DNA of 64,000 nt. Source: Candidatus Woesearchaeota archaeon (lineage in GTDB: Archaea > Nanobdellota > Nanobdellia > Woesearchaeales > SKIA01). The DNA lies in contig JAYVHA010000007.1 of NCBI GenBank assembly GCA_043771635.1, forward strand, positions 2,233-66,232, given 5' to 3'. The translations under genes were made by a program, and so were the position numbers. The notes under the pieces are model-generated. The model did not search any database, was not told the origin of the DNA, and was given only the letters and a program-made list of their open reading frames with translations. How positions within the stretch are numbered: position 1 is the stretch's first letter; every line of letters begins with the position of its first letter. Of the stretch, positions 42,046-63,095 are shown piece by piece.

Positions 42046-45000
42046 TTGGGTGGGCAGATAATCTGCCAAAGAGTGATAGAAGCAACAAGAAAAAACGTAC
42101 TACTCTTTATTGCATTAGTTGCACTTTTTTCTTGCGTATTTTCAGTGCGGGCTGCGGAATATAGTACTGCTACAGCTTTTCCGACAATTCCAGGCTTAGG
42201 ATTGAATACAGGTGTTGTTGCGGCTGCAGATCAGAACACTGGTGCTTTCGCATATAGTTACCAGTTTACAGTCCCTGAAGGTCCTGGCGGTTTAAAACCT
42301 GAGGTAGTACTGTCATATAATTCTCAGGCTGCTCGTGAACAGCGAGGAAACCAAGCAGCTGGCTGGGTTCTTAATAACGAGTATATTGACCGATTCCAAA
42401 ACTATACTCCATACATACTAACGGATGACGAATTCTACTTAGTATCTGGAAACGGGCGTGAGAAACTCATGTACAATGGATCTGGGACTAATAGATGGCA
42501 TACTCAGCACGAGACATTTACTTACATACAGAACTTAACATCAACTTCCAACAACTTTGGGATGTACTGGTCGATAAAGTATCCTGATGGTACAACAAAA
42601 CGTTATGGAGAATCTAGTAGTGAAGAATATGAAACCACTTACGGTGTAATGGCGAAACGCTATCATCTCGACCAGACAAATGACACATATGGCAATAAAC
42701 TACAGTTCCACTATCAACCAGCTGGAGTATTCACCTTAGACTACATAACTTATGGCGGTTCTACCCCAAGAACAGTTCAATTCGTGTATGAACCAAGACA
42801 ATATCCTAGGACCACTTACTATAATGGCTTTGAAGAACAATACACAGCTAGGCTTGCTGGAGTACAAACTACATACGGCGGAACACAAGTAAGATACTAC
42901 GATTTGAACTACTCAGTATCTGATTATTTGGAGCTATTACAATCAATAACTGAGTTATCAGCAACGAATAGCACATCATTACCAGCTACCACATTTAGCT
43001 ACTACTCAGCAACCGGGTGGATCAATCTAACCAGTCCATGGAGTCTTAACCCGCTATACTTCTTTGAATTCGAAGATGGTAAGGATTCAGGCGCCAGGGT
43101 AATTGACATAACTGGAGATGGCTTAGCTGACTACATACGACAAGTAATGTGCAATTCAAGCGCCTATAATAATACGCCTAACGTAAGTACAGCATATATG
43201 CGACAATTCCCTGGCGCAAGCAAAATAACTGTAACGGCGCAAGCATATGGAAATAGTTCTAACATGCAAAACTATGCCGTATCAGCAGGATTTCCACTAA
43301 CTGCAGCTCACAACCTTACGCAATCAGGCATTCTCAGCATCACTAATCAAGAGTATGGTCTTTACATAACTCCGAATAGAAACATATCGCTTCACCGCGT
43401 CAATGGTGATGGAATAGGTGCACCTTTCGAAATTGAGGTATTCAATGTATCATCAAGGATAGAAATCGCATCAGCTATAGGATCGAATGGCTATGCACAA
43501 TTTGACTCAGGCGTAAATTTATTCGCGCACCAGCGATATAGAGTGAGCTTTAAAGGAGCATCGCAAACGTATAGATATGGATCAGGTACAGGAGAGACTG
43601 TCAATTCAACATATCTTGCTATTGAGTGCGGCTACAGATATAATGATCCAAATGAAGGGTACTGCTATTCAATAGCATCATTCTCTATAGAGGAGCTATT
43701 TGAAAACAGCACCACTACAGGTTCCACTACCCTGAATCTAAACAACGGCGTGTACAATGGCAGGATACTTGCGGAAAACCACACGACAAAAACCTTTACG
43801 CTCACAGTTAACGGAACAGGTACGCAGCATGTATCAGATGTAGTTACCTCAAACGACTACTGTGCACCTGTACTGATAAACAACGGAAGCGGATACAACC
43901 TAGACGATGGCACTTGGAGAGTACCTACAAACTACTCGTTCGTGGACAATGGCACTGATTTAGGCACAAGATTTGCAGACATAAATGGAGATGGCCGCGT
44001 TGATCTCGTGCGAAGCGACTGCACCGCCGGAAAAACATTCAACGGAGTGATGCTAAACAATGGAGCTGGCTGGACTGCAACAAACTGGACTGTTCCAGCG
44101 GGTTACTGCATCATAGATGCCGGTTACAACGCAGGAACAGAACTTCTTGACGTAAACGCAGACGGAAGAGCAGATCTAGTAAACGGACGCGATCAAGCGC
44201 CGCTTATACTAAAAACAGCACTAAACACAGGATCTGGCTGGTCTAACTCAACTCAATTTACTCCACCAGTAGCCACAATGACCTACCTTGGAGGAGACGA
44301 CAGTGTGCGATACGTTGATATGAATGGAGATAATCTCGTGGATGTTCTTCAGCAATGCGGAGCTACAGCTTGCAGATCCTCTTACTTGAATAATGGTTCT
44401 GGCTGGAAATCAACGCAGGTATGGTGGACGCCTACCACGTACGCGTTTACTAACGGAATAACTGACGAGGGACTGCGACTAGTGGATCTTAACGGAGACG
44501 GGCTAACCGACATATTGAGGAGAAAGAATTGCACCTCCATTAACTGCTATGGAGTGCTGTTCAACAATGGAAGTGGCTGGATACAAGATACTTCAACATT
44601 ATGGATACCAAACAATACAATGGCGTTTACCATCGGTGAAAAAAACAAAATAATTCGACTAACAGACATAGATGGAGACGGAGCAGTAGATCTTGTTAAA
44701 CGAGATTTGTGTACAACCGCGGACTGTAATACTACACTGCGAAGCTTAGGAGCTAATAACAACCTGCTGCAATCAATAAAGTACAGCACCGGCGGAAACG
44801 TGACCGTTACGTACAACTACTCTGCTCGCAAAAAGAACCTCGGAACAGACAATATCGCAGACATGCCCTACTCTCTACCCGTGGTCGAAACGATAACGCA
44901 GGCAAATGGTATTAGCGGGGCGTCCCAAAGACAAGAAACGACAGGTTACAACTATTCGGGTGCCGTTTACGCAAGAAACGCTTGGACAAGTGAGTTCCGA

Positions 45001-47106
45001 GGATTCGCCACCACAAACCAAACTATAGGTAGAAAAAGAATCTCGACAAACTGGTTCCAATCAACAGGTCTCGAAGGCCGAATTAAGTATCGCGAAACAC
45101 ACGACGGCAGCACAAGGCTCAGAAACGAATCAAGCGACACATTTGTGCACAACTCATCCTATATTTACAAAGCGGTAACGCTGGGCGTTACAACAGCCCA
45201 ATACGATGGAAACTCAACACCTTGGACGACAATAACGAACTTTACGTACGACCAGTACGGAAACGCCCTCACGGAATACTCGCAAGGCGACACAGCAATA
45301 ACTGGTGATGAGCGTCTAAAGAATAAAACTTACACTGCGAACACCGCATTATGGATCATTAATACAGTCAATAAAGAGCAGCTACTGGCTGCAAATAACG
45401 TAACAATTCTGCGGCAAACTAACTACAGCCGAAACACACAAGGATCAGTCAGCGGAGAAGAAAAATTCCTATCTGGAGGAACGAACACGTACAAGAACTA
45501 CACGTACGATGCGTACGGCAACATAAACAGAACAGCAGACGAAAGAGGATACGTAACAGCACAAACGTACGACTCATCCGGAACATTCCCCCTGACAACG
45601 CTTAATGCCCTCGGACAGTACACATACAGAACCTGGAACTCATCGCTTGGCACCTTAATTAGCGAAAACGACAGTAACAACTACTCGACAAACCACATGT
45701 ACGACGCATTCGCAAGAAAACTAACAACAACAAAACCGTACGACACAACAGCATCACCAACAGTATCGCACAGCTATTCATTTGACGGAGTAAGCCCCGA
45801 ATCAATTACAACTACGACAAAGATAAACGCAACAACAAACGCAGTAACAATCCAGTACCTGGACGGCCTAGGAAAAGTAGTACAAACCAAACAACTAGCA
45901 GAAGATGCACTGTACGCAGTACAAGACTTCACGTACGACACTCAAGCACGACTAAACCAAACAACAAACCCATACTACTCAAACAACAGCAGCTACGCAC
46001 ACCCCATACTAACCAACGGTTACTCGGGAATAACATACGACGCACAAGACAGACCAACACAACTAAGGTACGCAGATAGTAGGACAAAAAACACAACCTA
46101 CGCCAAGAACGTCACAACCAGTTATGATGAAAACGCGGAAAGAACAGACACGGTAAAAGATGCATACGCAAATACTATACGGATACTAGAGTACTTGAAC
46201 GGAACTGCATACGCGACTTCGTACACGTATGACGCAGTAAGCCAGCTACTAACAATTGAAGATGCACAAGGCAACGACATAACGTTCAGCTACGACACGT
46301 TTGGCCGAAAGACCTCACTTGTCGATCCTGACCTCGGAACTTGGAACTACACCTACGATGCTGCAGGTAACTTAGTTTCTCAACGTGACGGCCGCGGCGT
46401 GACAGTATCCCTCTCGTACGACGCACTGAACAGGGTAACTCGCAAAAACGGAACATCAAGCGCAATGGACTTCACATACGATACCATCGCAAAAGGAACA
46501 TTGGCAAAAGTGGCTCTGACAAGCGCGAACAAGACATTCGCGTACGACCAACGTTTACGACGCACGCAAGAGAACTTGAGCATAGACGGAATAACATTCA
46601 GCACGAATTATAGCTACGACAGTGCAGACCACCTCATCCAGAAGAATATGACGAATGGGACTAGCATTAGATATACGTATAACGCTTTTAACAAACCTGA
46701 GAGTATTACAGGGATAATTAATGACTTTGATTATGTTGCTGTAGGCCAGCCAAGCGGCCGCGCGTATAACAATACACTCACAACAAACCTGACTTACGAC
46801 ACGAATAGCTTGCGTCTTAGCCGCATATATACGGGCACGAAGCAAAACATGAGTTATAGTTACGATGCTGTTGGAAACATATTGTTAATTACAGATGTCG
46901 CAAATAACGCGTCAGAAACATACACGTACGACGACTTAAACAGAATTAGCACGGCGAACAGAATAGTAAACGGAACAACACAATTTAGTGCAGCATACAC
47001 AGTAAGCCCAATTAACGTAATTACGAAGATAGTCACAAATAGTTGGACTAAGACTTTCAGCTTCGGATCTGCGCCAGTGCATGCTCCAAGCGAGGCAGCA
47101 GAGTGA
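42046..47106 (+). CDS. TcB-like RHS/YD-repeat protein: SpvB-N domain, FG-GAP-like beta-propeller, long YD-repeat shell (no RHS core)
   Basis: Signal-like NVLLFIALVALFSCVFSVRA. SpvB-like PGLGLNTG..YSYQFTVPEGPGGLKPEVVLSYNS..AGWVL. Repeats DINGDGRVDLV, VDLNGDGLTDIL, TDIDGDGAVDLV with NNGSGW. Dozens of YD repeats (YTYDAAGNLVSQRDGRG, YDALNRVTRK). Start codon uncertain (TTG/GTG). Confidence 0.85.
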   Translation: MGGQIICQRVIEATRKNVLLFIALVALFSCVFSVRAAEYSTATAFPTIPGLGLNTGVVAAADQNTGAFAYSYQFTVPEGPGGLKPEVVLSYNSQAAREQRGNQAAGWVLNNEYIDRFQNYTPYILTDDEFYLVSGNGREKLMYNGSGTNRWHTQHETFTYIQNLTSTSNNFGMYWSIKYPDGTTKRYGESSSEEYETTYGVMAKRYHLDQTNDTYGNKLQFHYQPAGVFTLDYITYGGSTPRTVQFVYEPRQYPRTTYYNGFEEQYTARLAGVQTTYGGTQVRYYDLNYSVSDYLELLQSITELSATNSTSLPATTFSYYSATGWINLTSPWSLNPLYFFEFEDGKDSGARVIDITGDGLADYIRQVMCNSSAYNNTPNVSTAYMRQFPGASKITVTAQAYGNSSNMQNYAVSAGFPLTAAHNLTQSGILSITNQEYGLYITPNRNISLHRVNGDGIGAPFEIEVFNVSSRIEIASAIGSNGYAQFDSGVNLFAHQRYRVSFKGASQTYRYGSGTGETVNSTYLAIECGYRYNDPNEGYCYSIASFSIEELFENSTTTGSTTLNLNNGVYNGRILAENHTTKTFTLTVNGTGTQHVSDVVTSNDYCAPVLINNGSGYNLDDGTWRVPTNYSFVDNGTDLGTRFADINGDGRVDLVRSDCTAGKTFNGVMLNNGAGWTATNWTVPAGYCIIDAGYNAGTELLDVNADGRADLVNGRDQAPLILKTALNTGSGWSNSTQFTPPVATMTYLGGDDSVRYVDMNGDNLVDVLQQCGATACRSSYLNNGSGWKSTQVWWTPTTYAFTNGITDEGLRLVDLNGDGLTDILRRKNCTSINCYGVLFNNGSGWIQDTSTLWIPNNTMAFTIGEKNKIIRLTDIDGDGAVDLVKRDLCTTADCNTTLRSLGANNNLLQSIKYSTGGNVTVTYNYSARKKNLGTDNIADMPYSLPVVETITQANGISGASQRQETTGYNYSGAVYARNAWTSEFRGFATTNQTIGRKRISTNWFQSTGLEGRIKYRETHDGSTRLRNESSDTFVHNSSYIYKAVTLGVTTAQYDGNSTPWTTITNFTYDQYGNALTEYSQGDTAITGDERLKNKTYTANTALWIINTVNKEQLLAANNVTILRQTNYSRNTQGSVSGEEKFLSGGTNTYKNYTYDAYGNINRTADERGYVTAQTYDSSGTFPLTTLNALGQYTYRTWNSSLGTLISENDSNNYSTNHMYDAFARKLTTTKPYDTTASPTVSHSYSFDGVSPESITTTTKINATTNAVTIQYLDGLGKVVQTKQLAEDALYAVQDFTYDTQARLNQTTNPYYSNNSSYAHPILTNGYSGITYDAQDRPTQLRYADSRTKNTTYAKNVTTSYDENAERTDTVKDAYANTIRILEYLNGTAYATSYTYDAVSQLLTIEDAQGNDITFSYDTFGRKTSLVDPDLGTWNYTYDAAGNLVSQRDGRGVTVSLSYDALNRVTRKNGTSSAMDFTYDTIAKGTLAKVALTSANKTFAYDQRLRRTQENLSIDGITFSTNYSYDSADHLIQKNMTNGTSIRYTYNAFNKPESITGIINDFDYVAVGQPSGRAYNNTLTTNLTYDTNSLRLSRIYTGTKQNMSYSYDAVGNILLITDVANNASETYTYDDLNRISTANRIVNGTTQFSAAYTVSPINVITKIVTNSWTKTFSFGSAPVHAPSEAAE

Positions 47107-50100
47107 ATCGAATGTTCCTTGCTGTCATGTTCGTTGCATTAGCATTAGCAATTCCTTCGGCATTAGCTGATAACATCACTAATGAAACGAACAACTCAAT
47201 TCCAATACTATTACCGAACGGCACGATCAACACAACAGCCCCAGTAATTATACTCGTGCCAACAGAGAATGTAGTAGAACAGCCTGCTGTAACAATATCA
47301 GAACCAAACCCTAAGCCTGCCGATGAGCCACAAGTAATTGAGGCTCTAGAACTTGTTGTAGCTCCTACTGAACCTCGTGACGCGCCCACACGCGACCCAG
47401 CAACAGTAGACGCACCCATACCTTATTGCGGACATAAGTCATGCGCAAAGGAGATTCTGACTACTGTGCGTGTTTCTGAAACAGCGTTTGGACGGCAGGA
47501 GATACTACAGCTAGAAAAAGATCCAAATTACCCGTGTACCATCGAAGAAGGCGGATTTGTAGTATGCGAGCCAATAACTCCTCAAGGAGAAGCAGCATTA
47601 AGGGCTGCATACGACCTCTCCGAAGGAATTCCCACTACAGACTACCGCCAGCCAGTTTACGAAGGATATTCAAGCCAACTGAGTACAGGCATCGTACGCG
47701 GAGTGAGAATTGGTTCTTACAAACGATCCACGATCAACCCTACCGTCCGGCAAAGATTCGAAATTAACGCTTCCGAACCTGGCGTATTCGTCGTAGGATT
47801 CGCCTCAAACGTCTTTGTCGTGTCAGACTTTAATTACGGTACGTGCGAGAACTGCTCAATTGGCACAACACAAGTAACACTTGAAAACTACCACTCGACA
47901 GACGCAGCACAAGCGCTTTCATGGCGTTTCTCAGGAAACGGACTAGACAGCTCAGGAAACGCAAACACAGCAACATTCGGCGGAGCAGCATACGTAAACA
48001 ACACATTTGCTGATGGTTTCGCGTTTAATGATGCCAATAAACTATCAGCTCCAGATGCCGCTAGCCTTGATATTTCAAACATGACGTTGTCTTTCTGGGT
48101 TCGGTTTAAATCCCTAACAGAAAACCAAACACTGATTTACCGCTACACATCAACAAACGGGTACTTATGCGAATTCGCTAAATACGACACAACAGGAATT
48201 CAATGCTACACAAGAAACTCAACAGCAGGAGGTGCTGCATGGGTACAGACAGGAGGAGCTAGCGAGACACAAAACCCTGACTATGAAATAAACAAATGGT
48301 ACCACATAGTACTAACCTATAACCTAAGCTCAGGAAACCTAAGCATATACCAAGACGGAACACTAAAGCACTCAAAAATTGCAACAAACCACAGCATGTC
48401 GTCAACAGCTTCATTCAAATGGGGAGCGGACTACTTCGACGCGTTCAACGGAACTGTAGACGAAATAAACCTCTACAGCAGAACATTCTCAGCAACAGAA
48501 GTAACATCCCTGTACAACTCGGGCTTATACCTAGTAAACCCATCATACGGAAACTACACAAGCATGATTGACCTCGGCCAATCATCGACTGTTTCAAGTG
48601 TGTCTTGGACTGGAAGTGGAAACCTAACAATAGCAGCAAGAACCGGAGACTATGCAAAACCAGGATTAACAGATACTGGACTATTCGGGTACTGGCCACT
48701 AAACCAATCACTGCTTTGTAAGGATGCGAACAGCCGTTATAACGGAACAGCATCATCAGGAGTAATCTGTGGAAACGTATCAGGACCATTCGTGCTAGAA
48801 AACGCAACATGGTTTGACAGCGACACCGACAAAATAACTCTACCACTCGCGACAAACTTCACCAACTGGTCTGTGCAAGTATGGGTGCGAAGCGATGGCA
48901 CATGTGTCGACGGACAAAACATATTCGCAAAAGGATGGGACTACCGAATATACACAACAAGCTCTTGCGGCATAACCATAGTATCAGCGAACAGCAGTGG
49001 CTCAAACAAATCAATGTCGTCCGTATGCTCAATATCCGACGGCCGATGGCACTCACTAGCATACGTATACAACGACACAGCAAAGACCGCGTACGCGTAC
49101 TGCGACGGAGTACAAAAGTCTAGCGTGACTCAGCAAGGCACAGCAACCTCATCAACTAACTTCACAATCGGCGGAGGAACTTCCGGCTTGACCTTCAGAG
49201 GATCCGTAGCGCAAGTATCATTATGGAATAAGACACTAGCACCAGCAGACCTAGTAGCATGGAACACGTGGAGCAGCACGCTCACATCAGGAAACGACCC
49301 AGGACTAACAGACGGCAGGTATGTACAATATTCAGCAATACTGCGCACGAACGATACTCGCAATACTTCGATGCTGACTAGCGTAAGCGTAGGCACAAGC
49401 AGTTCTTGCTCACTTTCAAACGGAGGTTACAACGTAACCCTAATGAACGGCGCATCAACAGGAAGCGGATACGCAACACTAGATGGAACTGATGATAGAA
49501 TAGATACTGACCTAAATGTTAGTTCTGTACTTAATAACGGAAGCTTCACACTTGCCATGTGGGTGAAAAGTGATGTCGACAGTGGGCAGCGAGCATTCTG
49601 GAGCGCGGACAGTAGCGGAACAGATAGATTCTATTTACGACAGAGCGATATAAGCTCAAACCAAGTAGTGCTCGGCGCCAGTAGCTGGAATCCGGTGTTG
49701 ACAGGTTATGGTGCTTTGAGTAACTGGACACATTACGTCCTGATTATTAACGGAACTAGTGGCCTATTCTACCGTAACGGGTTGAACGTTGCTAACACAA
49801 CAGGAATAACAAAGAACTATCCAGGAAAATACTTACGATTCGGCGCTAACGGCGATACACTAGCAGAAACACACGACGGAAACATAGACGGGATAAACCT
49901 ATACAACCGAGCACTAACATTAACAGAAGTTAGCCAGCTGTACACAAACATAACTGTAACAACCGGTCAAATACTTAGCATAGAATTCAATACCTGCAGC
50001 GCAACAACGAGTTTAACATACGACCCTAACGGAAACATGGTTTACGACGGTACGTATACCTACGAGTATGATTCATTCAATAGGTTGACCAAAATCTGGC

Positions 50101-51218
50101 TTGGTTTAGCGAATACTACCAACGTGTCAGCGTACTTGTATGACGACGAAGGAATTAGAATCAGAAAAATAGAATACAACACCACATCAGGTGCCATTCT
50201 TTCTAGAACATATTACCCTGACGATGACTTTGTACGCGTTTACAACGCAAGCAATCAAACCACTGACGAGGTTTACTATCGTGTCGACGGAACATTGCTC
50301 GCACAAATGAAAGGGAACAACTTGACCTTTATTCATACTAACCATTTGGGAACGCCTGACCTCGTCACGAGCACAACCGGTAGCACGATCGAGACGACAA
50401 AACTCGACCCTTACGGAAACGACATAACAGGGGGGAACAGTCGCTATGTTTTTACTGGCCATGAACGTGATACAGAAACTGGGCTAGATTACATGAAGGC
50501 AAGGCACTATAGTCCAGACCTCGCGATGTTTGTACAACCGGATAGTTTACTAGAAGATATATACTCTCCGCAAAAATTGAATAGATATGCGTATGTTTCA
50601 AACAGGCCGACGATTTATACAGATCCGACCGGGCAGTACAGTTGTGATGCAACGGGAGGATGCATTAGTTTCTGTGTGGGGTTCATATGTCCAATAATGA
50701 ATGCAGTTCCAGATGAAGGAGACAATCCTGACGTAGGTTTATACAACGGCAAAAATGTTCGTTTTGCTAACCAGGAACAAAATGCCTTTATGAGTGCTGT
50801 TATTTCGTTAACAACTATGGGAGGAGTTAGATCGTTTGGATTAGCCTCTAGTACTAAAGTTACCGGCAATAATGCTGTGAATTACGCAGATCTTCCTGAG
50901 GATGTCCAAAACACCCTGGCCAAAGTCAAATCCGGAGAAAAGTTACCCTATGCCAAGGATGGAACAATATATCAAAATAGAAACGAAGCTCTTCCAAAAC
51001 AAGCCGCTAATTATTACCGCGAGTATACAGTCCAAGCAGACCCTGCAAAAGGTAGAGGGACCAATAGGTTGGTAGTTGGAAATAATGGAGAGACTTACTA
51101 CACAACAAACCATTATGGCTCATTCAAAAGGGTCACCTCTGAGCCTGACCGCACTAATTTTAATCAAGCGTATAAAATGCTACAGAGAGCAGTAAATAGA
51201 ATTGGAGGCAATAAATGA
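47103..51218 (+). CDS. secreted LamG x3 - RHS-repeat - RHS core - barnase-family RNase toxin (polymorphic toxin)
   Basis: Signal MFLAVMFVALALAIPSALA. Three ConA/LamG-like domains. YD repeats. RHS core RYVFTGHERDTETGLDYMKARHYSPDLAMFVQPDS..YVSNRPTIYTDPTGQ. C-terminus GTIYQNRNEALPKQ..YREYTVQ..GRGTNRLVV..YYTTNHYGSFKRV aligns to barnase (GDIFSNREGKLPG..WREADI..RNSDRILY..YKTTDHYQTFTKI). Confidence 0.85.
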   Translation: MNRMFLAVMFVALALAIPSALADNITNETNNSIPILLPNGTINTTAPVIILVPTENVVEQPAVTISEPNPKPADEPQVIEALELVVAPTEPRDAPTRDPATVDAPIPYCGHKSCAKEILTTVRVSETAFGRQEILQLEKDPNYPCTIEEGGFVVCEPITPQGEAALRAAYDLSEGIPTTDYRQPVYEGYSSQLSTGIVRGVRIGSYKRSTINPTVRQRFEINASEPGVFVVGFASNVFVVSDFNYGTCENCSIGTTQVTLENYHSTDAAQALSWRFSGNGLDSSGNANTATFGGAAYVNNTFADGFAFNDANKLSAPDAASLDISNMTLSFWVRFKSLTENQTLIYRYTSTNGYLCEFAKYDTTGIQCYTRNSTAGGAAWVQTGGASETQNPDYEINKWYHIVLTYNLSSGNLSIYQDGTLKHSKIATNHSMSSTASFKWGADYFDAFNGTVDEINLYSRTFSATEVTSLYNSGLYLVNPSYGNYTSMIDLGQSSTVSSVSWTGSGNLTIAARTGDYAKPGLTDTGLFGYWPLNQSLLCKDANSRYNGTASSGVICGNVSGPFVLENATWFDSDTDKITLPLATNFTNWSVQVWVRSDGTCVDGQNIFAKGWDYRIYTTSSCGITIVSANSSGSNKSMSSVCSISDGRWHSLAYVYNDTAKTAYAYCDGVQKSSVTQQGTATSSTNFTIGGGTSGLTFRGSVAQVSLWNKTLAPADLVAWNTWSSTLTSGNDPGLTDGRYVQYSAILRTNDTRNTSMLTSVSVGTSSSCSLSNGGYNVTLMNGASTGSGYATLDGTDDRIDTDLNVSSVLNNGSFTLAMWVKSDVDSGQRAFWSADSSGTDRFYLRQSDISSNQVVLGASSWNPVLTGYGALSNWTHYVLIINGTSGLFYRNGLNVANTTGITKNYPGKYLRFGANGDTLAETHDGNIDGINLYNRALTLTEVSQLYTNITVTTGQILSIEFNTCSATTSLTYDPNGNMVYDGTYTYEYDSFNRLTKIWLGLANTTNVSAYLYDDEGIRIRKIEYNTTSGAILSRTYYPDDDFVRVYNASNQTTDEVYYRVDGTLLAQMKGNNLTFIHTNHLGTPDLVTSTTGSTIETTKLDPYGNDITGGNSRYVFTGHERDTETGLDYMKARHYSPDLAMFVQPDSLLEDIYSPQKLNRYAYVSNRPTIYTDPTGQYSCDATGGCISFCVGFICPIMNAVPDEGDNPDVGLYNGKNVRFANQEQNAFMSAVISLTTMGGVRSFGLASSTKVTGNNAVNYADLPEDVQNTLAKVKSGEKLPYAKDGTIYQNRNEALPKQAANYYREYTVQADPAKGRGTNRLVVGNNGETYYTTNHYGSFKRVTSEPDRTNFNQAYKMLQRAVNRIGGNK
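48495..50530 (+). repeat. ~2-kb direct repeat copy 1 (inside main RHS gene), partner at 51609-53650
   Basis: acagaagtaacatccctgtacaactcgggcttatacctagtaaacccatcatacgg.. recurs at 51609 with ~95% identity. Identity decays after the conserved RHS core. Confidence 0.85.
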
Positions 51219-51541
51219 CAAAGGAAAAAACACTGACTAAGAATTTGAACGCAGACATCCTTGTTAATTTGTCCAATGTGGCAAGTAAAAAAAAAGTGTT
51301 CGAGATATTTAGTTCAGAACTATTTTTTCCAGAGTATTTCGGACACAACTGGGATGCGCTATATGACTGCTTAACAGACCTTGTTTGGCTTCCAAAAGTT
51401 AAAACAACTATTACAGTCTGTCTTCCAAAAAGGCTTTCTAACAATGATAAACTCGTTTTAGTAAGATTGCTTCAGGATGTAGACGCCTACTGGGAGCAGG
51501 AAAAGAGACATATTAGGGTCAAAATTGGTAATAACAATTAG
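51215..51541 (+). CDS. barstar-family immunity protein
   Basis: ELFFPEYFGHNWDALYDCLTDLVWLP versus barstar [26 protein letters not shown]. ATGA overlap with the toxin stop. Confidence 0.8.
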   Translation: MTKEKTLTKNLNADILVNLSNVASKKKVFEIFSSELFFPEYFGHNWDALYDCLTDLVWLPKVKTTITVCLPKRLSNNDKLVLVRLLQDVDAYWEQEKRHIRVKIGNNN

Positions 51542-54269
51542 GTCATTAAATTCTGTATTAGAAGCCTGCATAGAGGGAGTTGCACAGTACAATCGCACTA
51601 GATCTATGACAGAAGTAACATCCCTATACAACTCAGGCTTATACCTAGTAAACCCATCATACGGAAACTACACAAGCATGATAGACCTCGGCCAATCATC
51701 GACTGTTTCAAGTGTGTCTTGGACAGGCAGCGGAAACCTAACAATAGCAGCAAGAACCGGAGACTACGCAAAACCAGGATTAACCGATACAGGACTATTC
51801 GGGTACTGGCCACTAAACCAAACACTGCTTTGTAAGGATGCGAACAGCCGTTATAACGGCACAAATTCAAGTGGGGTCATATACGGCAATGTTACAGGCC
51901 CATTTGTTCTAGAGAACGCAACGTGGTTTGACAGTGACACTGACAAAATAACTCTACCACTCGCGACAAACTTCACAAACTGGTCTGTGCAAGTATGGGT
52001 AAGAAGCGATGGCACATGTGTCGACGGACAAAACATATTCGCAAAAGGATGGGACTACAGAATATACACAACAGGTTCGTGTGGCATAACCATGGTATCA
52101 GCAAACAGTAGCGGATCAAACAAAACAATGGCATCAGTGTGCTCAATTTCAGACGGCCGATGGCACTCACTTGCATACGTATACAACGACACAGCAAAGA
52201 CCGCGTACGCGTACTGCGACGGAGTACAAAAGTCTAGCGTTACTCAGCAAGGCACAGCAACCTCATCAACTAACTTCACAATCGGCGGAGGAACATCCGG
52301 ACTAACCTTCAGAGGATCAGTTGCGCAAGTATCGTTATGGAACAAGACACTAGCACCGGCAGATCTAGTAGCATGGAACACGTGGAGCAGCACACTAACA
52401 TCAGGAAACGACCCTTTACTTTCTGACGGAAGATATGTGCAATACAGCGCAATACTGCGCACGAACGACACTCGCAATACTTCGATGCTGACCAGCGTAA
52501 GCGTAGGAACAAGCAGCTCCTGCTCACTATCAAACGGAGGATACAACGTAACCCTAATGAACGGCGCATCAACAGGAAACGGCTACGCAACACTAGACGG
52601 CGTTGACGACCGCATATCAACAGACATGAATGTTAGTTCCGCTCTTAGCAACGGAAGCTTCACGATATCTATGTGGGCAAAAAGCGACGCAGACGCTGGC
52701 CAACGAACGTTCTGGAGCGCAGACACAAACGGCTCCGATAGATTCTACTTCCGTCAATCAGACGTAAGTTTAAACCAAGTTGTACTGGGCATGAGCAGTT
52801 GGAATACAGTATTGACAGGCTACGGGGCTTTGAGTAACTGGACGCACTATGTGCTAGTAATTAGCGGCACGAGCGGAACGTTGTATCGCAATGGCGTAAA
52901 TATCGCAAACATGAGCGGCATAACAAAGAACTATCCTGGAAAATACTTACAACTAGGAGCAAACGCTGAATGGTACGCAGAAACGATGGACGGGAACATG
53001 GATCGAGTTGCAATATACACTCGCGCATTAAACAACACAGAAGTAGCTCAACTATACGCAAATACGAGCGTGAGCAGCGGACGCATATTCAACTTAGATT
53101 TCGACCCTTGCAACGGCAGCACTAGCCTAACATACGATGCCAACGGAAACATGGTTTACGACGGTACGTTCACTTACGAATATGATTCATTCAATAGATT
53201 GACCAAAATCTGGCTTGGATTAGCAAATACTACCAACGTGTCGGCGCACTTGTATGACGACGAAGGAATTAGAATCAGAAAAATAGAATACAACACCACA
53301 TCAGGCGCCGTTCTTTCTAGAACATACTACCCAGACGATGACTTTGTACGCGTTTACAACGCGAGCAATCAAACCACAGACGAAGTTTACTATCGTGTCG
53401 ACGGAACATTACTTGCTCAAATGAGAGGCAACAACCTAACGTACATCCATCCAAACCATCTAGGTACACCTGATTTGGTGACAAACAGTTCTGGAGGAAC
53501 CGTAGAGGTCACAAAACTGGACCCCTACGGAAATGACATAACTGGTGGAAATGGCAGATATGCTTTCACTGGCCATGAACGAGACACAGAAACTGGGCTA
53601 GATTACATGAAGGCAAGGCACTATAGCGCAGATCTTGCGATGTTCGTGCAGCCAGATTCGATTAAAGAGAATGTGTACGATCCACAAACACTAAATCCAT
53701 ACGGCTACGTTAGAAATAATCCGACTAACAAAGTTGACCCGACCGGCATGTTTAGCTCTCAACTCCTCGGACTAGGAGTCTTTATGGCAAGTGCTAATAC
53801 TGGTGCTGCGCTATACGGAGGTCCGTTCGGAATTGGTTTTGCAGCAATAGAAGGCCCAATAACCATTTCAGTTATTGCGACTTCATTCATTATTGATGAA
53901 GATGAGACTGATGAGTATGCTCGTGCTTTTGCTGCAGGTTCGATTTCGGCAGAATTCTTGGTCACTGCCAAGGACATATATAATACGGGATCTGTTTCAG
54001 GAGTGCCATTCACAGGACCAGCAGGCCAAGCGTTATACGGCACATATGGCAATAATAGACGGCAGACCTTCCTGAAAGAAGCACAAGCACGCCAGGACTC
54101 TCAACGAGACAAATCTATCGAGAGGGAGTACAAAGGCAAATCCATGAGTACTCCTAGTGGCAAGGAGGCAAAAATAGATAAAGTGCTGCGAGGTAATAGT
54201 GGTAAGATCTGGGTTATTAGTGAACCCTATAAAAAAAATTCTAATGGCAGTAGTAGGGACAAGAAATGA
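51525..54269 (+). CDS. orphan RHS C-terminal cassette (LamG x2 - YD repeats - RHS core - alternative C-terminal toxin CT2); may lack an authentic start
   Basis: From nt 51609 it is ~95% identical to 48495 onward of the main gene. RHS core RYAFTGHERDTETGLDYMKARHYSADLAMFVQPDS..NPTNKVDPTGMF. Divergent tail with Gly-rich hydrophobic segment GLGVFMASANTGAALYGGPFGIGFAAIEGPITISVIATSFII. Confidence 0.6.
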   Translation: MVITIRSLNSVLEACIEGVAQYNRTRSMTEVTSLYNSGLYLVNPSYGNYTSMIDLGQSSTVSSVSWTGSGNLTIAARTGDYAKPGLTDTGLFGYWPLNQTLLCKDANSRYNGTNSSGVIYGNVTGPFVLENATWFDSDTDKITLPLATNFTNWSVQVWVRSDGTCVDGQNIFAKGWDYRIYTTGSCGITMVSANSSGSNKTMASVCSISDGRWHSLAYVYNDTAKTAYAYCDGVQKSSVTQQGTATSSTNFTIGGGTSGLTFRGSVAQVSLWNKTLAPADLVAWNTWSSTLTSGNDPLLSDGRYVQYSAILRTNDTRNTSMLTSVSVGTSSSCSLSNGGYNVTLMNGASTGNGYATLDGVDDRISTDMNVSSALSNGSFTISMWAKSDADAGQRTFWSADTNGSDRFYFRQSDVSLNQVVLGMSSWNTVLTGYGALSNWTHYVLVISGTSGTLYRNGVNIANMSGITKNYPGKYLQLGANAEWYAETMDGNMDRVAIYTRALNNTEVAQLYANTSVSSGRIFNLDFDPCNGSTSLTYDANGNMVYDGTFTYEYDSFNRLTKIWLGLANTTNVSAHLYDDEGIRIRKIEYNTTSGAVLSRTYYPDDDFVRVYNASNQTTDEVYYRVDGTLLAQMRGNNLTYIHPNHLGTPDLVTNSSGGTVEVTKLDPYGNDITGGNGRYAFTGHERDTETGLDYMKARHYSADLAMFVQPDSIKENVYDPQTLNPYGYVRNNPTNKVDPTGMFSSQLLGLGVFMASANTGAALYGGPFGIGFAAIEGPITISVIATSFIIDEDETDEYARAFAAGSISAEFLVTAKDIYNTGSVSGVPFTGPAGQALYGTYGNNRRQTFLKEAQARQDSQRDKSIEREYKGKSMSTPSGKEAKIDKVLRGNSGKIWVISEPYKKNSNGSSRDKK
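51609..53650 (+). repeat. ~2-kb direct repeat copy 2 (orphan RHS cassette)
   Basis: See copy 1. Confidence 0.85.
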
Positions 54270-54556
54270 ATTCAAAGCAATTTCCCGTGCGTGTGCGACC
54301 AACTCAGTTAATTGCCGGGGCAGTATTCTTTTTCGGCTTTTTGGGACTATTGTTTGCCTTCAAGTATCTGCCACTCCAATCGGCTATCGGATTGACAATG
54401 GTCTACGTAGTGATATTTGCTTTGGTTGTGGCTAACATCAAGAAGTTAATTTTATACGTTGAAAGCGGACTTCTTTATAGACTTCTGGTTTGGTTATTGA
54501 GCCTAATCTTCTTTATACTCTTCATCTTGCAAGTTATTAAGTTACTTTCTAATTAA
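54266..54556 (+). CDS. small 3-TM membrane protein, candidate immunity protein for orphan toxin CT2
   Basis: ATGA overlap with the orphan cassette stop. 96 aa, three hydrophobic helices. Confidence 0.5.
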   Translation: MNSKQFPVRVRPTQLIAGAVFFFGFLGLLFAFKYLPLQSAIGLTMVYVVIFALVVANIKKLILYVESGLLYRLLVWLLSLIFFILFILQVIKLLSN

Positions 54557-55002: not shown

Positions 55003-55188
55003 ATGTTATGTATGGTTAAAACGCGTCTTGTGGGTTTTCGCGTGAGTGAGGAGCAGTATTTTTTGCTTCGTTTGTGGGCGCGACAGGATGGCTTGGGGGT
55101 TTCTAGCTACGTCAGAATGCGTTTTTTTAGGAAGGAGCGGGCTGCGGGCAAGGAAATGGCCTCTGAGGGCGAGAAAAATGGATATTGA
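55003..55188 (+). CDS. ribbon-helix-helix (CopG/Arc-like) DNA-binding protein
   Basis: TRLVGFRVSEEQYFLLRLWARQDGLGVSSYVR resembles the RHH beta-strand plus two helices. Confidence 0.45.
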   Translation: MLCMVKTRLVGFRVSEEQYFLLRLWARQDGLGVSSYVRMRFFRKERAAGKEMASEGEKNGY

Positions 55189-55351
55189 GTTGCTTCGTGG
55201 TGAGCGGCGTTGCTTTTACTGCACAAATACTGTATGGAACGCCATGTGCGCTTACACCGAGGATTGTATGTCCCGGTCTGAATTCATCCGTGTTGCGATA
55301 GAGGAGAAGCTTCTTCGTGATTCGGAGAATTTACGGGAAAAACGCAAATGA
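55178..55351 (+). CDS. ribbon-helix-helix (CopG-like) DNA-binding protein
   Basis: MSRSEFIRVAIEEKLLRD RHH motif. Start taken at internal ATG 55178 of ORF 55046-55351. Overlaps the previous RHH gene by 11 nt. Confidence 0.45.
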   Translation: MDIELLRGERRCFYCTNTVWNAMCAYTEDCMSRSEFIRVAIEEKLLRDSENLREKRK

Positions 55352-55477
55352 GCATATAAAACTCATTAGCTTAGTTGAAATCACAATGAAGGCTATAGTT
55401 GAACTTTCCAATGAAGAATATGAGACGCTTGCAAAGAATTTCGACGAAGGAACCGGTACACGTATTCGAATGTTTAT

Positions 55478-56269
55478 TCATCTAAATTGAGAGTTAGTAC
55501 GTAGCTGCTTACTCCGCCTTCTAATAGTTACTTCGACGACTCCAGTGTAGCGTGTAAACAGTCTCTGTGCGCGGTATTCGCCTGTTGTTTGCATCGCGAC
55601 GTACAGGCTTGTTGCTGCGAGCGTACTTGGCTTAAGGCCGTTACTGGCATTCATTCCTGCGTATTGTATTGCTAGAGTTACTGTGTTGCTTGGCAGCCGT
55701 AGTCTTGTTGCGAACCGCGGTATGAGGTCTATTGCTTCTATCGTGCCCGTTCTTATTTTTAGAGCTCTTTGAATGTGTTTTGCAGCCTTAAGCAATTCAG
55801 CTTTAGGTATTTCTGTGTGCGCAGTAATTTCTAGCGCTGTTTGCGGCGTTCCGGCGTCGATGCATGCAATGTATACTGCTGCGTATGCAAATGCCTGATT
55901 GCTTCTGCCGATTGTTATTTCTTTATTGGTTACTTCGAGGAACATTCTTTTTGCTTCTGCCGCTACGGTTTTAGGTGCTTTAATTCTTGATACTAGAAGG
56001 TCTATTTCGCTGCATGTTGCTCGGAAGTTTTTTTGTTTGGTTGTTAATAGCCATGATTCTGTTAGGTGTCTTCCGTTTGTGTTGAAGGTGCCTGCTTGCG
56101 CTAAGGCTGGATGTGATGCGTGGCTGCCTTCGGATAACAAGGTACTTTGTTCTATTCTGTTGTCTTCAAGCACTAACCCGCAGCCTAGGCACACTAGCTC
56201 TCCTTGGGATTCTCTAAATCTCTTTTCCGCGCATTCAGAGCACCGCATTAGAATCTTCGCCTCCTTCAT
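55478..56269 (-). CDS. tfb: transcription initiation factor TFB (TFIIB) homologue, short form
   Basis: N-terminal Zn ribbon CSECAEKRF..GELVCLGCGLVLED. Cyclin-fold region NQAFAYAAVYIACIDAGTPQTALEIT. Confidence 0.7.
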   Translation of the reverse strand: MKEAKILMRCSECAEKRFRESQGELVCLGCGLVLEDNRIEQSTLLSEGSHASHPALAQAGTFNTNGRHLTESWLLTTKQKNFRATCSEIDLLVSRIKAPKTVAAEAKRMFLEVTNKEITIGRSNQAFAYAAVYIACIDAGTPQTALEITAHTEIPKAELLKAAKHIQRALKIRTGTIEAIDLIPRFATRLRLPSNTVTLAIQYAGMNASNGLKPSTLAATSLYVAMQTTGEYRAQRLFTRYTGVVEVTIRRRSKQLRTNSQFR

Positions 56270-56507
56270 CGGTAAAGTATAGTAGTACTGGCATTGTCTT
56301 CTGTTCGGAGAGTTTTTCGAGCCTGCTTAGCACTTGTTCTTTGCTTAGGCATAGCTCCATAACGTATTCTACTTTTGAGCTGCTTGAGCTGAATAGCTGT
56401 CGCACGGGTAATTTTAGATCTATTCTTCTTCGGCTATCGTTGTAGAGTACTTTCCCTGTTATGGTTACGATTTTGTTTGTTGTGCCGAATAGTATTTTTT
56501 CTCCCAT
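56235..56507 (-). CDS. hypothetical protein (90 aa)
   Basis: ORF lying between the ATPase and TFB genes in the same orientation. Confidence 0.3.
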   Translation of the reverse strand: MGEKILFGTTNKIVTITGKVLYNDSRRRIDLKLPVRQLFSSSSSKVEYVMELCLSKEQVLSRLEKLSEQKTMPVLLYFTDEGGEDSNAVL

Positions 56508-56617
56508 CCCGTATACATATACTGTATTTCATAATTTATCTACTTTCGCGTGATAATTTCAATGTATTTCCGGCGTTTCCGGATTACCGACGGCGCCACC
56601 CCTAAATCCAGGCCTAA

Positions 56618-59617: not shown

Positions 59618-61638
59618 TAGATTACTCCGCCGAGATACTTCGCAGCTTGAGCGACGCTTCCTCCCATGTCGCCTAGAGCCGACTTAGTGATGATGTGCTT
59701 GCCGAGAACCAAGAATAGCAAGTTAACGAGCAGAAAGCACGTTATCATGATAACTATCTTGAAATTTTGAAACAATTCAACTTGTACGAGCATACTGCTT
59801 GCAAGAATGATAATGGAAGCTAGAAACGTACTGAAAATTGCCATGCCAAGCAAGTTAAGAATGAGCTTACCATAACTGCGGAGCGGAGGCACGAAGTAGC
59901 AGAAAATACCAACAGGAGCAAATATGACACCCGCAGCAACCACCAAGTACCGAAGCGTAAGAACCACGATCGTGGCGAGCAAAACCACGGCGTAGGTGAG
60001 AACGAGCAAGAACTCAAGAGCAACATTCACCACGTTATCTGCAGTTAACTGAAAGAACGCAGGATCAACTTGCACTAGCACCGTACTTGCGAGAGCGGAA
60101 CCGAGCTCAAGCATAAGACCGTACAAGTAAAAGCTAGCTTGAACGAAAATAATTAGCAAAATAGCATTCTTTAGCGACTCCTTAGCAAGCTCGCGCTTAA
60201 CTACATCATGACCACTCGTCATAAACTGATAACCAGCGTACAAAAACAAGAAACCATAAAGAATACTCAGCAACGCTACAATTACTTGCCACACGCCTTG
60301 AAACAATGCGATACTTGGCGGATTCTCGATGAGACTGCGCGTAAAGTCAAGCAAAGGCTGCAAAGGAGCATTCAAAGCGCCAATCAGGAACTCGAAGAAC
60401 TTCTGGGGAATACACGTCGCAAGATTGGTTATACCACAATCATCCGCTCGGACACCAGGAAGAGCTGCAATAGCTGCCAGAACGACGCCGAACAGCGGCG
60501 GGAACTTCTTACGAGCAAATCGTATCAAAACAAGTATCAAGAGAATGAGAAGAAGCAGCTTGAAACCGAACTTAAGATCGGACGAGAATCTAGTTTGTTT
60601 GAACGGCGTGAAAATAGCACCAGTAATATTTCTCGCGCAAGACAAAGTCTTAGTGTCGAAGAAGTCGCTAAGAACGAGGTTGCAAGCGCTCGAGTCCTTA
60701 ACCGTTACCGACCCATTACTGTAAAACAGGTTCGTAGGATACTCTTGACGCTGCCTCGTGGCTTGCAATGCAATAAAGTCGTACGGTGCCTTTGTGAAAT
60801 TAGCAGAGTAAACGAACTCACCAACAAGTAGATGGCTTTGGTTAAAATCTAAACGGACATACGTCAGATTGTCTTTGGTAAGCTCTCCGCCAACACTATC
60901 TGCGTATTGCGTGGTGAGAATGAAAGATGCGTTAGGTGAATGATTGTATGCCGCGACAGTTTGGTAATCCTGAAGAGTCAGGTTATCTAATTTGTACGTA
61001 GTGAGACTGAATGAACAACTATAGCAAGTGCTTTCGCACGCTAACCCGCAACACCGGGCAGTTGTACGGTACGTATCAACTTTAGTTGTAGCTGACAATT
61101 CTAAATTTGCTCGTATAACTGAATCTACAGGCACGGAGAAATTACTTATTTTATTTGAACCAACCGTTTCACCGTTTAGTACAATACTATAATTCTCTTG
61201 CGTATCCTCTAGCGAATATAGTATTTTGCAAATGCTACCTGTGACGCGGTTTGAATTTCTATAATCTGGCGGCAGTTCAATGGAGTAACCGTACTCGCTC
61301 CGCGCAGTTACTATTGCGGGAACATACGTGCGCCCCTCAAATAACATACTCGGCTGAATGGAGAGCAGTACAAGCCAAGCGTCTTTAATAACACCCTCAG
61401 AAGTATTTTGATAACCTTCTGGGGGACCGGTAACGATGATTCCATCATTGTACGACGCAACAAACTCGTGATCTGGCGAGCTAGTGTTCGTATAGATAAG
61501 GTTAGCAATCGCGCCAGGCGATGTTACGCTCAGCGCAAGACACGCCTCGTAACTGGGCGAAGCGAATAGCGAACAATCAAAAGCGTAAACTCCACCAACA
61601 AGCGACGACAAAAATAGAAGAAAAATAAATGATTTCAT
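59617..61638 (-). CDS. VirB6/TrbL/CedA-like polytopic membrane protein with N-terminal glycosylated Cys-rich extracellular domain
   Basis: Signal MKSFIFLLFLSSLVGGVYA. ~340-aa sequon-rich ectodomain with CCGLACESTCYSC. 6-7 TM helices in the C-terminal half. TAATG overlap with the ATPase start. Confidence 0.6.
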   Translation of the reverse strand: MKSFIFLLFLSSLVGGVYAFDCSLFASPSYEACLALSVTSPGAIANLIYTNTSSPDHEFVASYNDGIIVTGPPEGYQNTSEGVIKDAWLVLLSIQPSMLFEGRTYVPAIVTARSEYGYSIELPPDYRNSNRVTGSICKILYSLEDTQENYSIVLNGETVGSNKISNFSVPVDSVIRANLELSATTKVDTYRTTARCCGLACESTCYSCSFSLTTYKLDNLTLQDYQTVAAYNHSPNASFILTTQYADSVGGELTKDNLTYVRLDFNQSHLLVGEFVYSANFTKAPYDFIALQATRQRQEYPTNLFYSNGSVTVKDSSACNLVLSDFFDTKTLSCARNITGAIFTPFKQTRFSSDLKFGFKLLLLILLILVLIRFARKKFPPLFGVVLAAIAALPGVRADDCGITNLATCIPQKFFEFLIGALNAPLQPLLDFTRSLIENPPSIALFQGVWQVIVALLSILYGFLFLYAGYQFMTSGHDVVKRELAKESLKNAILLIIFVQASFYLYGLMLELGSALASTVLVQVDPAFFQLTADNVVNVALEFLLVLTYAVVLLATIVVLTLRYLVVAAGVIFAPVGIFCYFVPPLRSYGKLILNLLGMAIFSTFLASIIILASSMLVQVELFQNFKIVIMITCFLLVNLLFLVLGKHIITKSALGDMGGSVAQAAKYLGGVI

Positions 61639-61964
61639 GCGACCAAGTACTGGATAACATAAGGAGCTATCCAGATCACCCCTAGGCCAACAATAACATA
61701 GCCAGCCATCTTCTTAGCCTGAGAACGCGCAGCCTGATCATCACCACTAGTGATAAAAGTAACACCAGCAAAGACCAAGAACAAAACCGCAATTACGGAA
61801 GCAGCGTACTTAATGAAATTATAGACCTTCATAACAGGCGACAAAATCAAATCGAAAGTAGCCTGATCCTGCGCACTAATAACCTGATTATAATCAACAG
61901 CAAAAGCAGCAGGCAACAAAACAAATAATACAGCCAAAATACCATACAATAACTTCTTCATCAT
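61635..61964 (-). CDS. VirB2/TrbC-like pilin candidate (signal peptide + two TM helices)
   Basis: 109 aa. MMKKLLYGILAVLFVLLPAAFA signal, then two hydrophobic helices. Strong SD AAGGAGGTGG before ATG. ATGA overlap with the downstream gene. Confidence 0.5.
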   Translation of the reverse strand: MMKKLLYGILAVLFVLLPAAFAVDYNQVISAQDQATFDLILSPVMKVYNFIKYAASVIAVLFLVFAGVTFITSGDDQAARSQAKKMAGYVIVGLGVIWIAPYVIQYLVA

Positions 61965-62426
61965 TCCACCTCCTTAAGCTCCATATGAGCTATGGCATCC
62001 AAAAGCCGCAAATATGCCTCGACAGAACCATACTTCCAAGTCAGAAAAGCAGCACAAGAAAAGCAAAAAGCAACATCAGAACCAGCAAGCCGTCCACCAC
62101 ACAAAGCACATTCAGCTACAAACACCATACAAACCTAAGAATTGCGATGACTAAAGTAAGGAACTCAGAGAATGTATAACAAAGCCGGCACTTATCTAGA
62201 GCTAACTCGCTGCCAACGGCGACTGCATTTTTTACATGTATAATCTGTTCGAAAATCCGTTACAGCAACAGGTCTAGATTCTGTTCGAACAACAGACCAG
62301 TTAGAATGCCGCGACTATGTTCAAATCATAACCATTCTAACTCGGAGAATGTAATACGCATGACTGTAACATACCTGTCGCATACCCGACAAGCTTTAAT
62401 TCGCATAACACTTTTAGGTTAATGTC

Positions 62427-62882: not shown

Positions 62883-63095
62883 TGACGGAAGAACCTAAAC
62901 CAAATAGAAAGCCTCCCTTCTACGACCCTGAGATAATGGGGACAAGAGACGAAACGCTTCAATACAAGTCGAACGATCCTCGTAAGGGCAAAGATTCAAA
63001 ATAATTTTTAACTTCTTTTACACTTTCAAAGCAGAAAGATATGAGCGCAACCTAGAATGTGAAGCATCAGACATTCGTTCAACGTTGGGCGCCCA

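Follow-up and report, generated by a model that had tools for sequence, protein, structure and literature searches.

A probable orphan toxin/immunity module behind an archaeal secreted RHS-core polymorphic toxin gene

Is a shortened second copy of a toxin gene, lying directly behind its full-length counterpart, a displaced toxin/immunity module, a toxin in its own right or a functionless relic? This question is raised by a locus in the 64,000-nt stretch of contig JAYVHA010000007.1 (assembly GCA_043771635.1, Candidatus Woesearchaeota archaeon) that was analyzed here and is called the window below. Both the 16S-tRNA(Ala)-23S operon of the window and housekeeping genes such as those for the archaeal-type S-adenosylmethionine (AdoMet) synthetase and prolyl-tRNA synthetase (ProRS) are archaeal, and the host is therefore an archaeon. 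Its toxin cluster consists of five genes on the plus strand (42046..54556), in the order FG-GAP/YD partner gene, main toxin gene, barstar, a second toxin gene copy with a different C-terminal tip (CT2), and an open reading frame (ORF) for a protein of 96 amino acids (aa). Our analysis suggested that the last two genes are probably the displaced (orphan) toxin/immunity module of an archaeal Sec-secreted polymorphic toxin with a rearrangement hotspot (RHS) core.

The duplicated toxin half and its truncated copy

The main toxin comprises a Sec signal peptide, three Laminin_G_3 (LamG) domains, a short YD stretch, an RHS core and a barnase-type RNase tip (CT1) beginning at 50622, with profile scores of 2.1e-51 for Laminin_G_3, 1.9e-18 for TIGR03696 and 2.4e-16 for Ribonuclease PF00545, and the tip is directly followed by the immunity gene barstar. 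The orphan lies downstream of this full-length gene on the same strand, has the 3′ core in common with it and ends in a different tip. Its ORF (51525-54269) runs for 914 codons from a TTG with no internal stop, and gene callers in three assemblies placed the start at ATG 51606, which gives 887 aa. The orphan lacks the 5′ part and the export signal of the main gene, no signal peptide being found in its protein, with the caveat that ATG 51606 is called as a start. Upstream of this ATG, the frame still encodes a remnant of the LamG1 end, of which the closing strand reads IEGVAQYNRTRSM-TEV in the orphan and VDEINLYSRTFSA-TEV in the main gene. The nucleotide identity between orphan and main gene changes at 51609 from ~45% upstream to 97% downstream. 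These comparisons indicate that the orphan is a 5′-truncated gene with a truncation point abutting barstar, and that the identity jump at 51609 marks where a tract homogenised later begins and is distinct from the truncation point. The rhs-orphan arrangement of tip and immunity gene proposed in the initial annotation was borne out by the main gene, the truncated paralogue, the differing second tip and the overlapping candidate immunity gene.

A BLASTN comparison of the window with itself revealed a single long direct repeat (83.9% identity over 2058 columns, E = 0). The coordinates that the initial annotation had given for it were confirmed, whereas its estimate of ~95% identity was too high and "near-identical" an overstatement for a mosaic in which identity per 100 nt varies from 63 to 97%. 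It amounts to 80-97% per 100 nt (~90% on average) in the first kb and to ~70% in LamG3; a 200-nt patch reaches 93-96%, the core has 68-81%, and the longest identical run is 68 nt. The offset of 3114 nt between the copies is a multiple of 3, and they are in frame throughout. The proposed extent over LamG2-LamG3, the YD stretch and the core was likewise supported, two Laminin_G_3 domains and TIGR03696 being matched.

The RHS core scored nearly alike in both genes (TIGR03696, 66.5 bits in the orphan and 66.7 bits in the main gene; cut-off 32.5), and their homology ends at the DPTG motif, which is a DPxG boundary. In an alignment of 49 core sequences, including 47 homologues and the main copy, R173 and D186 (QPDS) were invariant, D213 was present in at least 90% and G216 was conserved (DPTG). 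The conserved positions correspond to the autoprotease aspartates of Rhs/TcC proteins, encoded in the orphan at 53655-53657 (QPDS) and 53736-53738 (DPTG), and cleavage is predicted. When modelled by AlphaFold2 (AF2) with the alignment, the YD/core part reached a predicted local distance difference test (pLDDT) score above 90, and it was this part alone that gained from the alignment. Foldseek searches with this model gave 43 matches at E ≤ 0.001, exclusively to Rhs, Tc BC or teneurin shells (E = 1e-13 to 1e-9, best root-mean-square deviation ~3.2 Å), over 210-290 aligned columns. Because these are mostly ~215-235 columns and cover 6-27% of each target (TMt 0.06-0.27), the orphan chain comprises only the terminal portion of a shell and its plug, and no full cocoon, although such a shell is a defining trait of canonical RHS proteins. 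The distance from LamG3 to DPTG, at only ~215-220 residues, is too short for a toxin-enclosing shell; YD-repeat shells in solved structures measure ~650-1000 residues. Pfam RHS_repeat was below threshold in the main gene and absent from the orphan.

The partner gene may supply what is missing. The YD repeats of its protein are C-terminal and the gene overlaps the start of the main toxin gene, and the YD parts of partner and toxin may build one two-chain, Tc-like shell. In the split TcB/TcC shell of Tc toxins, the YD repeats encoded by two adjacent genes make up one closed shell, and the first of them carries a beta-propeller. In the window, the upstream gene carries FG-GAP and C-terminal YD repeats and overlaps the toxin gene. 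On the other side, the toxin's own signal peptide and the LamG domains ahead of its YD part argue against a simple TcB/TcC arrangement. The partner/toxin gene pair is kept in a locus of the Nanoarchaeota archaeon metagenome-assembled genome (MAG) GCA_964357875.1, designated L005. The protein encoded at the same position there is 33% identical to the partner over 1134 aa (E = 7e-161), and both proteins end with a ...PVHAPS... motif. A similar partner/toxin gene overlap was also observed in L008.

That the repeat was duplicated only by the assembler, a concern raised at the outset, can practically be dismissed. It is true that two contigs of other assemblies break within the repeat (the starts of L002 and L003 are at 52186 and 53597, respectively). 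Against this, the copies differ at 16% of positions, the tips differ, and contigs of separate assemblies cover both copies, namely those of ERZ27315199, ERZ28573545 and the 84-kb NCBI contig. The ERZ27315199 MEGAHIT contig has the same arrangement and is 100% identical, and the ERZ28573545 scaffold carries 18 substitutions.

Comparison of the two copies gave ratios of nonsynonymous to synonymous divergence (dN/dS) of 0.07 in the first 334 codons, 0.09 in the YD patch, ~0.05 in the core and 0.12 overall, the synonymous sites of the LamG3 segment being saturated, so that no ratio could be obtained there. Together with the intact 2.7-kb ORF, these low values suggest that the orphan copy is under protein-level constraint. 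The synonymous differences per site (pS) ranged from 0.31 to 0.77 by segment and were uneven among segments (chi-square 92.6, p = 6e-20), which fits segments of different age, as would result from repeated conversion or import. In addition, a variant contig, L004, differs from the window at 18 positions over 22.4 kb, and 18/18 lie inside the repeat and carry the paralogue's base; the chance of all of them hitting copy-differing positions is ~3e-28 by a rough count of such sites. Seventeen of them form the conversion-like tract listed in Table 1, and the eighteenth, at 48965 in the main copy, is changed to the orphan's base. Since the change is non-reciprocal and the haplotype is new, the comparison favours a real conversion tract of 114-238 nt.

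The CT2 tip and the 96-aa protein

CT2 extends over 177 aa from DPTG. It had been described as a glycine-zipper-like hydrophobic domain that does not resemble barnase. The divergence from CT1 and the unlikeness to barnase were confirmed, and the hydrophobic character turned out to be limited to residues 1-52, which contain an A24-G28-G32-A36-G40 ladder with one GxxxG (G28-G32). A sole 19-residue window of CT2 reaches a Kyte-Doolittle mean of 1.6, and AF2 predicted no helix there. The model of CT2 alone had a pLDDT of 48; a long helix followed by a beta-hairpin appeared in the basic tail in both AF2 runs, with low confidence.

The view that CT2 belongs to no known family was upheld by remote homology and structure searches. 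In a full HMMER scan of 1.84 billion representative proteins, CT2 matched its own protein only. A word-indexed search of 5.8 billion proteins gave no matches with CT2; as this search also missed the query's own protein, P0002, and a second window protein, P0004, although both are cluster representatives there, the absence rests on the HMMER scan. Nothing was found in Pfam, NCBIfam and PHROGs (E ≤ 10), PADLOC (E ≤ 1) or PDB sequences, an exact CT2 32-mer was absent from JGI metagenomes, and phmmer comparison with 123 related toxins gave composition-level scores only. Foldseek with the CT2-only model returned noise (best E = 0.17, no RNase). A barnase-type ribonuclease (PF00545) was rejected for CT2 on the Pfam and Foldseek results, as was a barnase-like motif in its tail, for which BLASTP against CT1 gave E = 0.2 with Pro at the position of the catalytic His. 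A resemblance by eye to the tip of the related toxin P0008 was also rejected (BLASTP E = 32).

In the 96-aa protein, a basic N-terminus precedes three predicted transmembrane segments (Kyte-Doolittle 19-residue means 2.2-3.0); the three strong hydrophobic peaks and the ATGA overlap with the orphan, both claimed before, were seen in the sequence. The same overlap joins CT1 and barstar, so that it is common to both toxin/immunity pairs. Among the 1.84 billion representative proteins, the 96-aa protein matched its identical sequence only, and Pfam, NCBIfam, PHROGs, PADLOC and PDB sequences yielded nothing. Composition-level scores were all that phmmer gave against 10 neighbouring small membrane proteins, and a likeness by eye to the 97-aa neighbour of P0008 was rejected (BLASTP E = 0.3).

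Codon usage was scored per codon at +0.33 bits for CT2, +0.26 for barnase, +0.22 for barstar and +0.20 for the 96-aa ORF, and at ~0 for neighbouring non-coding ORFs. N-x-S/T sequons occur at 37-45 per 1000 aa in the exported stalks (main gene 47103-51218, orphan 51606-54269; 45 per 1000 aa in the region upstream of CT2) and stop at the DPTG motif, with 0/198 residues in CT1 and 1/177 in CT2 (P = 6e-4 and 2.7e-3, respectively). CT2 therefore looks like a working tip, having coding-like codon usage and being depleted of sequons like CT1. Taken with the ATGA coupling, these features suggest that CT2 and the 96-aa ORF are real genes.

The YD/core half has many homologues with 28-44% identity, and a few short matches reach 59%; the closest homologues are short proteins made up of a signal peptide, a YD stretch, the core and a tip, one of them from a Nanoarchaeota MAG. 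In L005, whose core has only 38% identity with the one in the window, the partner gene (3-3452) overlaps a signal-peptide toxin gene, followed by two small membrane proteins and then orphans, each with a different tip and 76-89% nucleotide identity to the L005 main gene. Downstream of tips that have no known domain, L005 encodes proteins with 2-3 predicted transmembrane segments, and downstream of a colicin D tip a soluble ImmD. Similarly, the Gly/Ala-rich tip of P0008 is followed by the 97-aa protein, which has three transmembrane segments, and two small membrane proteins follow P0011. No sequence similarity to CT2 or the 96-aa protein was found among the tips and membrane proteins of L005, P0008 and P0011. 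Three signal-less L005 orphans (at 6533, 8392 and 12775) begin with a common segment, ATGCAAAC...AATAACGAATT..TGGACA, which encodes MQTxTxQKxNxEFxWT, includes the start codon and is overlapped by the 3′ end of the small membrane-protein gene before it. This segment may be either a sequence of the cassette junction or a start that the orphans truly have in common.

Proposed history of the locus and competing explanations

We propose that an incoming 3′ half tipped with barnase and accompanied by barstar recombined into an older, CT2-tipped gene, that the old CT2-bearing 3′ part was thereby pushed downstream, and that later gene conversion re-homogenised patches of both copies. The cluster would be transcribed as one unit, so that the 96-aa protein would keep the cell immune to CT2-armed relatives. 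Having no signal peptide, the orphan would not be exported in its present form. Since the repeat is in frame throughout its 2 kb, a crossover at any point of it would join CT2 to the exported 5′ part of the main gene and so put this tip on an exported stalk; such a fusion would probably have to be preceded by a duplication, as barstar is lost as well in a simple deletion. Once the protein had been exported, its core would cleave at DPTG and set CT2 free. By analogy with Tse5 and its immunity protein Tsi5, CT2 might then damage the target-cell membrane by insertion of its Gly/Ala-rich segment, which the 96-aa protein would block. A membrane activity predicted in this way is plausible, and we put it forward tentatively, as having slightly less than an even chance of being right.

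Several observations weigh against this account. CT2 and the 96-aa protein are without homologues, so that neither appears to be backed by conservation. The low dN/dS could predate the displacement of the orphan, and the L004 tract could partly reflect the path an assembler chose between the repeats. Of the recombination envisaged in the initial annotation, exchange between the copies found indirect support in the 114-nt conversion-like tract and the uneven synonymous divergence; no main-CT2 junction was observed. With 84% identity and a longest identical run of 68 nt, the repeat is less suited to recombination than the 522 bp of Salmonella, which are 95% identical, and the loss of barstar in a simple crossover is a further difficulty. 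AF2 gave CT2 pLDDT values of 30-79 and predicted no membrane helices. Besides, an ATG stands exactly at the identity boundary and is gene-called, so the orphan may be translated alone. It is from this last point that a different explanation arises, in which the orphan is an independently translated second toxin, starting at ATG 51606 or TTG 51525 and reaching the surface without a signal peptide of its own, for example in association with the partner protein. The 887-aa gene called in three assemblies, the intact ORF under constraint and the N-terminal MQTxTxQK... shared, start codon included, by the three signal-less orphans of L005 fit such a toxin. However, it has neither a signal peptide nor a Shine-Dalgarno-like sequence beside ATG 51606, the in-frame degenerate LamG1 remnant upstream marks a truncation and not a designed start, and the Rhs orphans known so far have no export signals (PMC3967940); we consider an independent toxin improbable.

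A further difficulty for a membrane-active CT2 is that soluble nuclease tips of this clade, too, stand behind hydrophobic starts like its own. Within 70 aa of DPxG, a hydrophobic peak was seen in 5/5 nearest homologues, in CT1 and in the L005 colicin D toxin, and in only ~10/74 distant homologues. As such stretches precede barnase and colicin D, the Gly-rich start may, in CT2 too, serve for entry or as a linker, as is typical of the clade, and not be the toxic part. CT2 would then act in the cytosol, with its toxic part in the basic C-terminal ~115 residues, for instance as a nucleic-acid-targeting domain, and the 96-aa membrane protein would either block entry at the membrane or not be the immunity protein at all. 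The pI of 10.2 of residues 106-177, the helix and beta-hairpin recurring in two AF2 runs and the weak, motif-like alignment to the barnase domain of CT1 are in line with this combination. It is opposed by the lack of any Pfam, NCBIfam or PDB match (E ≤ 10) and of an RNase among the Foldseek results, by the Pro in place of the catalytic His, and by the pairing seen in the window and L005, where soluble nuclease tips go with soluble immunity proteins (barstar, ImmD) and tips having no known domain with membrane proteins. Jointly, a cytosolic CT2 and such a role of the 96-aa protein seem rather unlikely, if more probable than an independent toxin. We regard it as very unlikely that the cassette is a decaying, functionless relic with a 96-aa ORF arisen by chance. 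The singleton status of both proteins and the capacity of AT-rich sequence to yield hydrophobic ORFs would agree with decay, yet 914 codons without a stop, dN/dS ~0.1, codon-usage scores like those of real genes, the ATGA coupling found also in the barnase/barstar pair, sequon depletion as in CT1 and the analogous tip/membrane-protein pairs of related loci all speak against it.

The displaced module thus remains the preferred explanation. A bolder extension of it, to which we give little credence at present, is that CT2 and the 96-aa protein form a new toxin/immunity family directed against archaeal ether-lipid membranes and delivered by a two-chain, Tc-like shell of LamG-YD-core and FG-GAP/YD proteins. 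If true, this would be an archaeal contact-dependent or secreted weapon of which both the tip and the delivery pair are without bacterial counterpart. As CT2 is a singleton, a function established for it could not yet be taken as general.

Neighbouring genes and comparison with known systems

The features of the locus are collected in Table 1. Directly upstream of the toxin cluster lies a gene for an OLD/GajA-like AAA ATPase with TOPRIM (39852-41603; PADLOC GajA 7.5e-41), and no obvious GajB partner was noticed among the listed ORFs of the window. Downstream, a conjugation-like or integrated-element module (55012-63809) adjoins the cluster; between 54557 and 55478 there is no additional repeat or orphan remnant. 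The G+C content of the window drops from ~39 kb onward. Elsewhere, the window contains a 16S rRNA gene (3635-5102), a 23S rRNA gene (1-3093) with a group I catalytic intron at 797-1121 on the minus strand (Rfam 55.3 bits, E = 2.6e-11), a 1776-aa surface protein (9920-15250) with cytochrome D1-like beta-propeller, malectin, glucose/sorbosone dehydrogenase, cupredoxin and PEGA domains, and a 138-nt direct repeat of 85% identity (6809-6945 versus 7596-7733) unrelated to the toxin locus.

Table 1. Coordinates of the toxin locus and of the adjoining module in the window
Feature	Coordinates	Strand	Basis or remark
Partner gene, 1686 codons, secreted	42046..47106	+	Pfam FG-GAP_3, RHS_repeat; NCBIfam YD_repeat_2x
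Main toxin gene, likely start ATG 47112	47103..51218	+	Pfam, NCBIfam profile matches
Repeat copy A, inside main gene	48495..50543	+	BLASTN against copy B
Barstar, immunity gene for CT1	51215..51541	+	Pfam Barstar 9.1e-22; ATGA overlap with main gene
In-frame LamG1-end remnant, 5′ end of orphan ORF	51525..51608	+	Sequence comparison; candidate ATG 51606
Repeat copy B: LamG2, LamG3, YD stretch, most of orphan core	51609..53657	+	BLASTN against copy A
Conversion-like tract	52059..52172	+	L004: 17 orphan sites carry main copy's base
Orphan RHS repeat-associated core	53520..53750	+	TIGR03696 2.2e-18
CT2, variable tip	53736..54269	+	Segment composition, codon usage
CT2 residues 1-52	53736-53891		Uncharged, Gly/Ala-rich, grand average of hydropathy (GRAVY) +0.97
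CT2 residues 53-62	53892-53921		Acidic patch
CT2 residues 63-105	53922-54050		Neutral, Gly/Ala-rich
CT2 residues 106-177	54051-54266		Strongly basic, hydrophilic, isoelectric point (pI) 10.2
Candidate immunity gene, 96 aa	54266..54556	+	ATGA overlap with orphan, hydrophobicity peaks
NikA-like/ribbon-helix-helix (RHH) proteins	within 55012-63809		Conjugation-like module
Transcription factor B (TFB) paralogue	55478-56269	-	Conjugation-like module
VirB4/TraC-like ATPase	56618-59617	-	Conjugation-like module
673-aa protein with pilin-like stretch; TrbC-like pilin			Conjugation-like module
PycTM-like 151-aa membrane protein	62427-62882		Conjugation-like module; no cyclase nearby
N6/N4 DNA methylase	within 55012-63809		Conjugation-like module

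A close known parallel is STM0291/STM0292 of Salmonella Typhimurium (Koskiniemi et al., 2014, PMC3967940; Poole et al., 2011, PMC3150448), in which a 5′-truncated fragment lies behind a full-length gene, on the same strand. As in orphans of this type, the copies in the window have a common core and diverge at DPxG, and the orphan, which has no export signal, is accompanied by a candidate immunity gene of its own. In Salmonella, 522 bp at 95% identity serve for recombination between the main gene and the displaced 3′ fragment, which has neither start nor export signals, and main/orphan fusion follows a duplication that keeps the immunity gene of the main copy (PMC3967940). The repeat permits main/orphan fusion in enterobacterial rhs and would do so in the window locus. 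The repeat here is, however, 2 kb and thus four times longer, only 84% identical, and includes two LamG domains. The window locus also differs from enterobacterial rhs in that the host is an archaeon, a Sec signal takes the place of type VI secretion (T6SS) and PAAR, the YD part of ~220 aa is not a full shell, and no recombinant was observed.

With regard to the tip, Tse5 of Pseudomonas aeruginosa is a pore-forming Rhs tip with an integral-membrane immunity protein, Tsi5, which has two predicted transmembrane segments (PMC9637101, PMC10684867). The likeness to Tse5-Tsi5 consists of an RHS-core protein, a tip with hydrophobic segments and no enzymatic signature, and a small partner that is, here by prediction, an integral membrane protein. 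In sequence and fold, CT2 is similar neither to Tse5 nor to glycine-zipper tips such as EsxX (PMC12744356), from which it further differs by having one GxxxG plus a small-xxx-small ladder and by being two thirds polar.

In archaea, RHS toxins with cassettes were predicted by comparative genomics in Methanosarcina acetivorans (Zhang et al., 2012, PMC3482391), and barnase/barstar is listed among archaeal polymorphic-toxin modules (Zhang et al., 2012, PMC3482391; Makarova et al., 2019, as cited in PMC8416519). Such toxins have been reported from a few archaea and called rare (PMC3482391), and they have been predicted and never experimentally characterised (PMC8416519). The predicted systems likewise are stalked toxins with RHS repeats and downstream toxin/immunity cassettes (PMC3482391). 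Unlike them, the window locus has a stalk of three LamG domains, a short YD stretch and a separate FG-GAP/YD partner gene, and CT2 falls in no listed toxin family.

Among the loci compared, L005 likewise has a partner gene, a signal-peptide core toxin, downstream orphans and small multi-transmembrane proteins after Gly-rich tips; it differs from the window locus in having no LamG domains, three or four orphans and tips unrelated to CT2. In bacteria, WapA of Bacillus subtilis is reportedly a Sec-exported, wall-associated YD/RHS-core toxin that has a variable toxin at its C-terminus and an immunity gene next to it. The toxin of the window resembles it in the Sec route without T6SS for a YD/RHS-core protein with a variable tip and immunity gene, whereas WapA has a long YD array, a cell-wall-binding region and a bacterial host. 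The orphan layout itself is already known; noteworthy at this locus are its stalk of LamG domains, the FG-GAP/YD partner gene, which is conserved, and a tip without relatives. It provides a compact archaeal example of a polymorphic toxin with an internal positive control, barnase/barstar, and with population-level signs of sequence exchange between the two copies. Together with the Nanoarchaeota locus, it indicates that the main-plus-orphan design and the pairing of unclassified tips with small membrane proteins recur in archaea.

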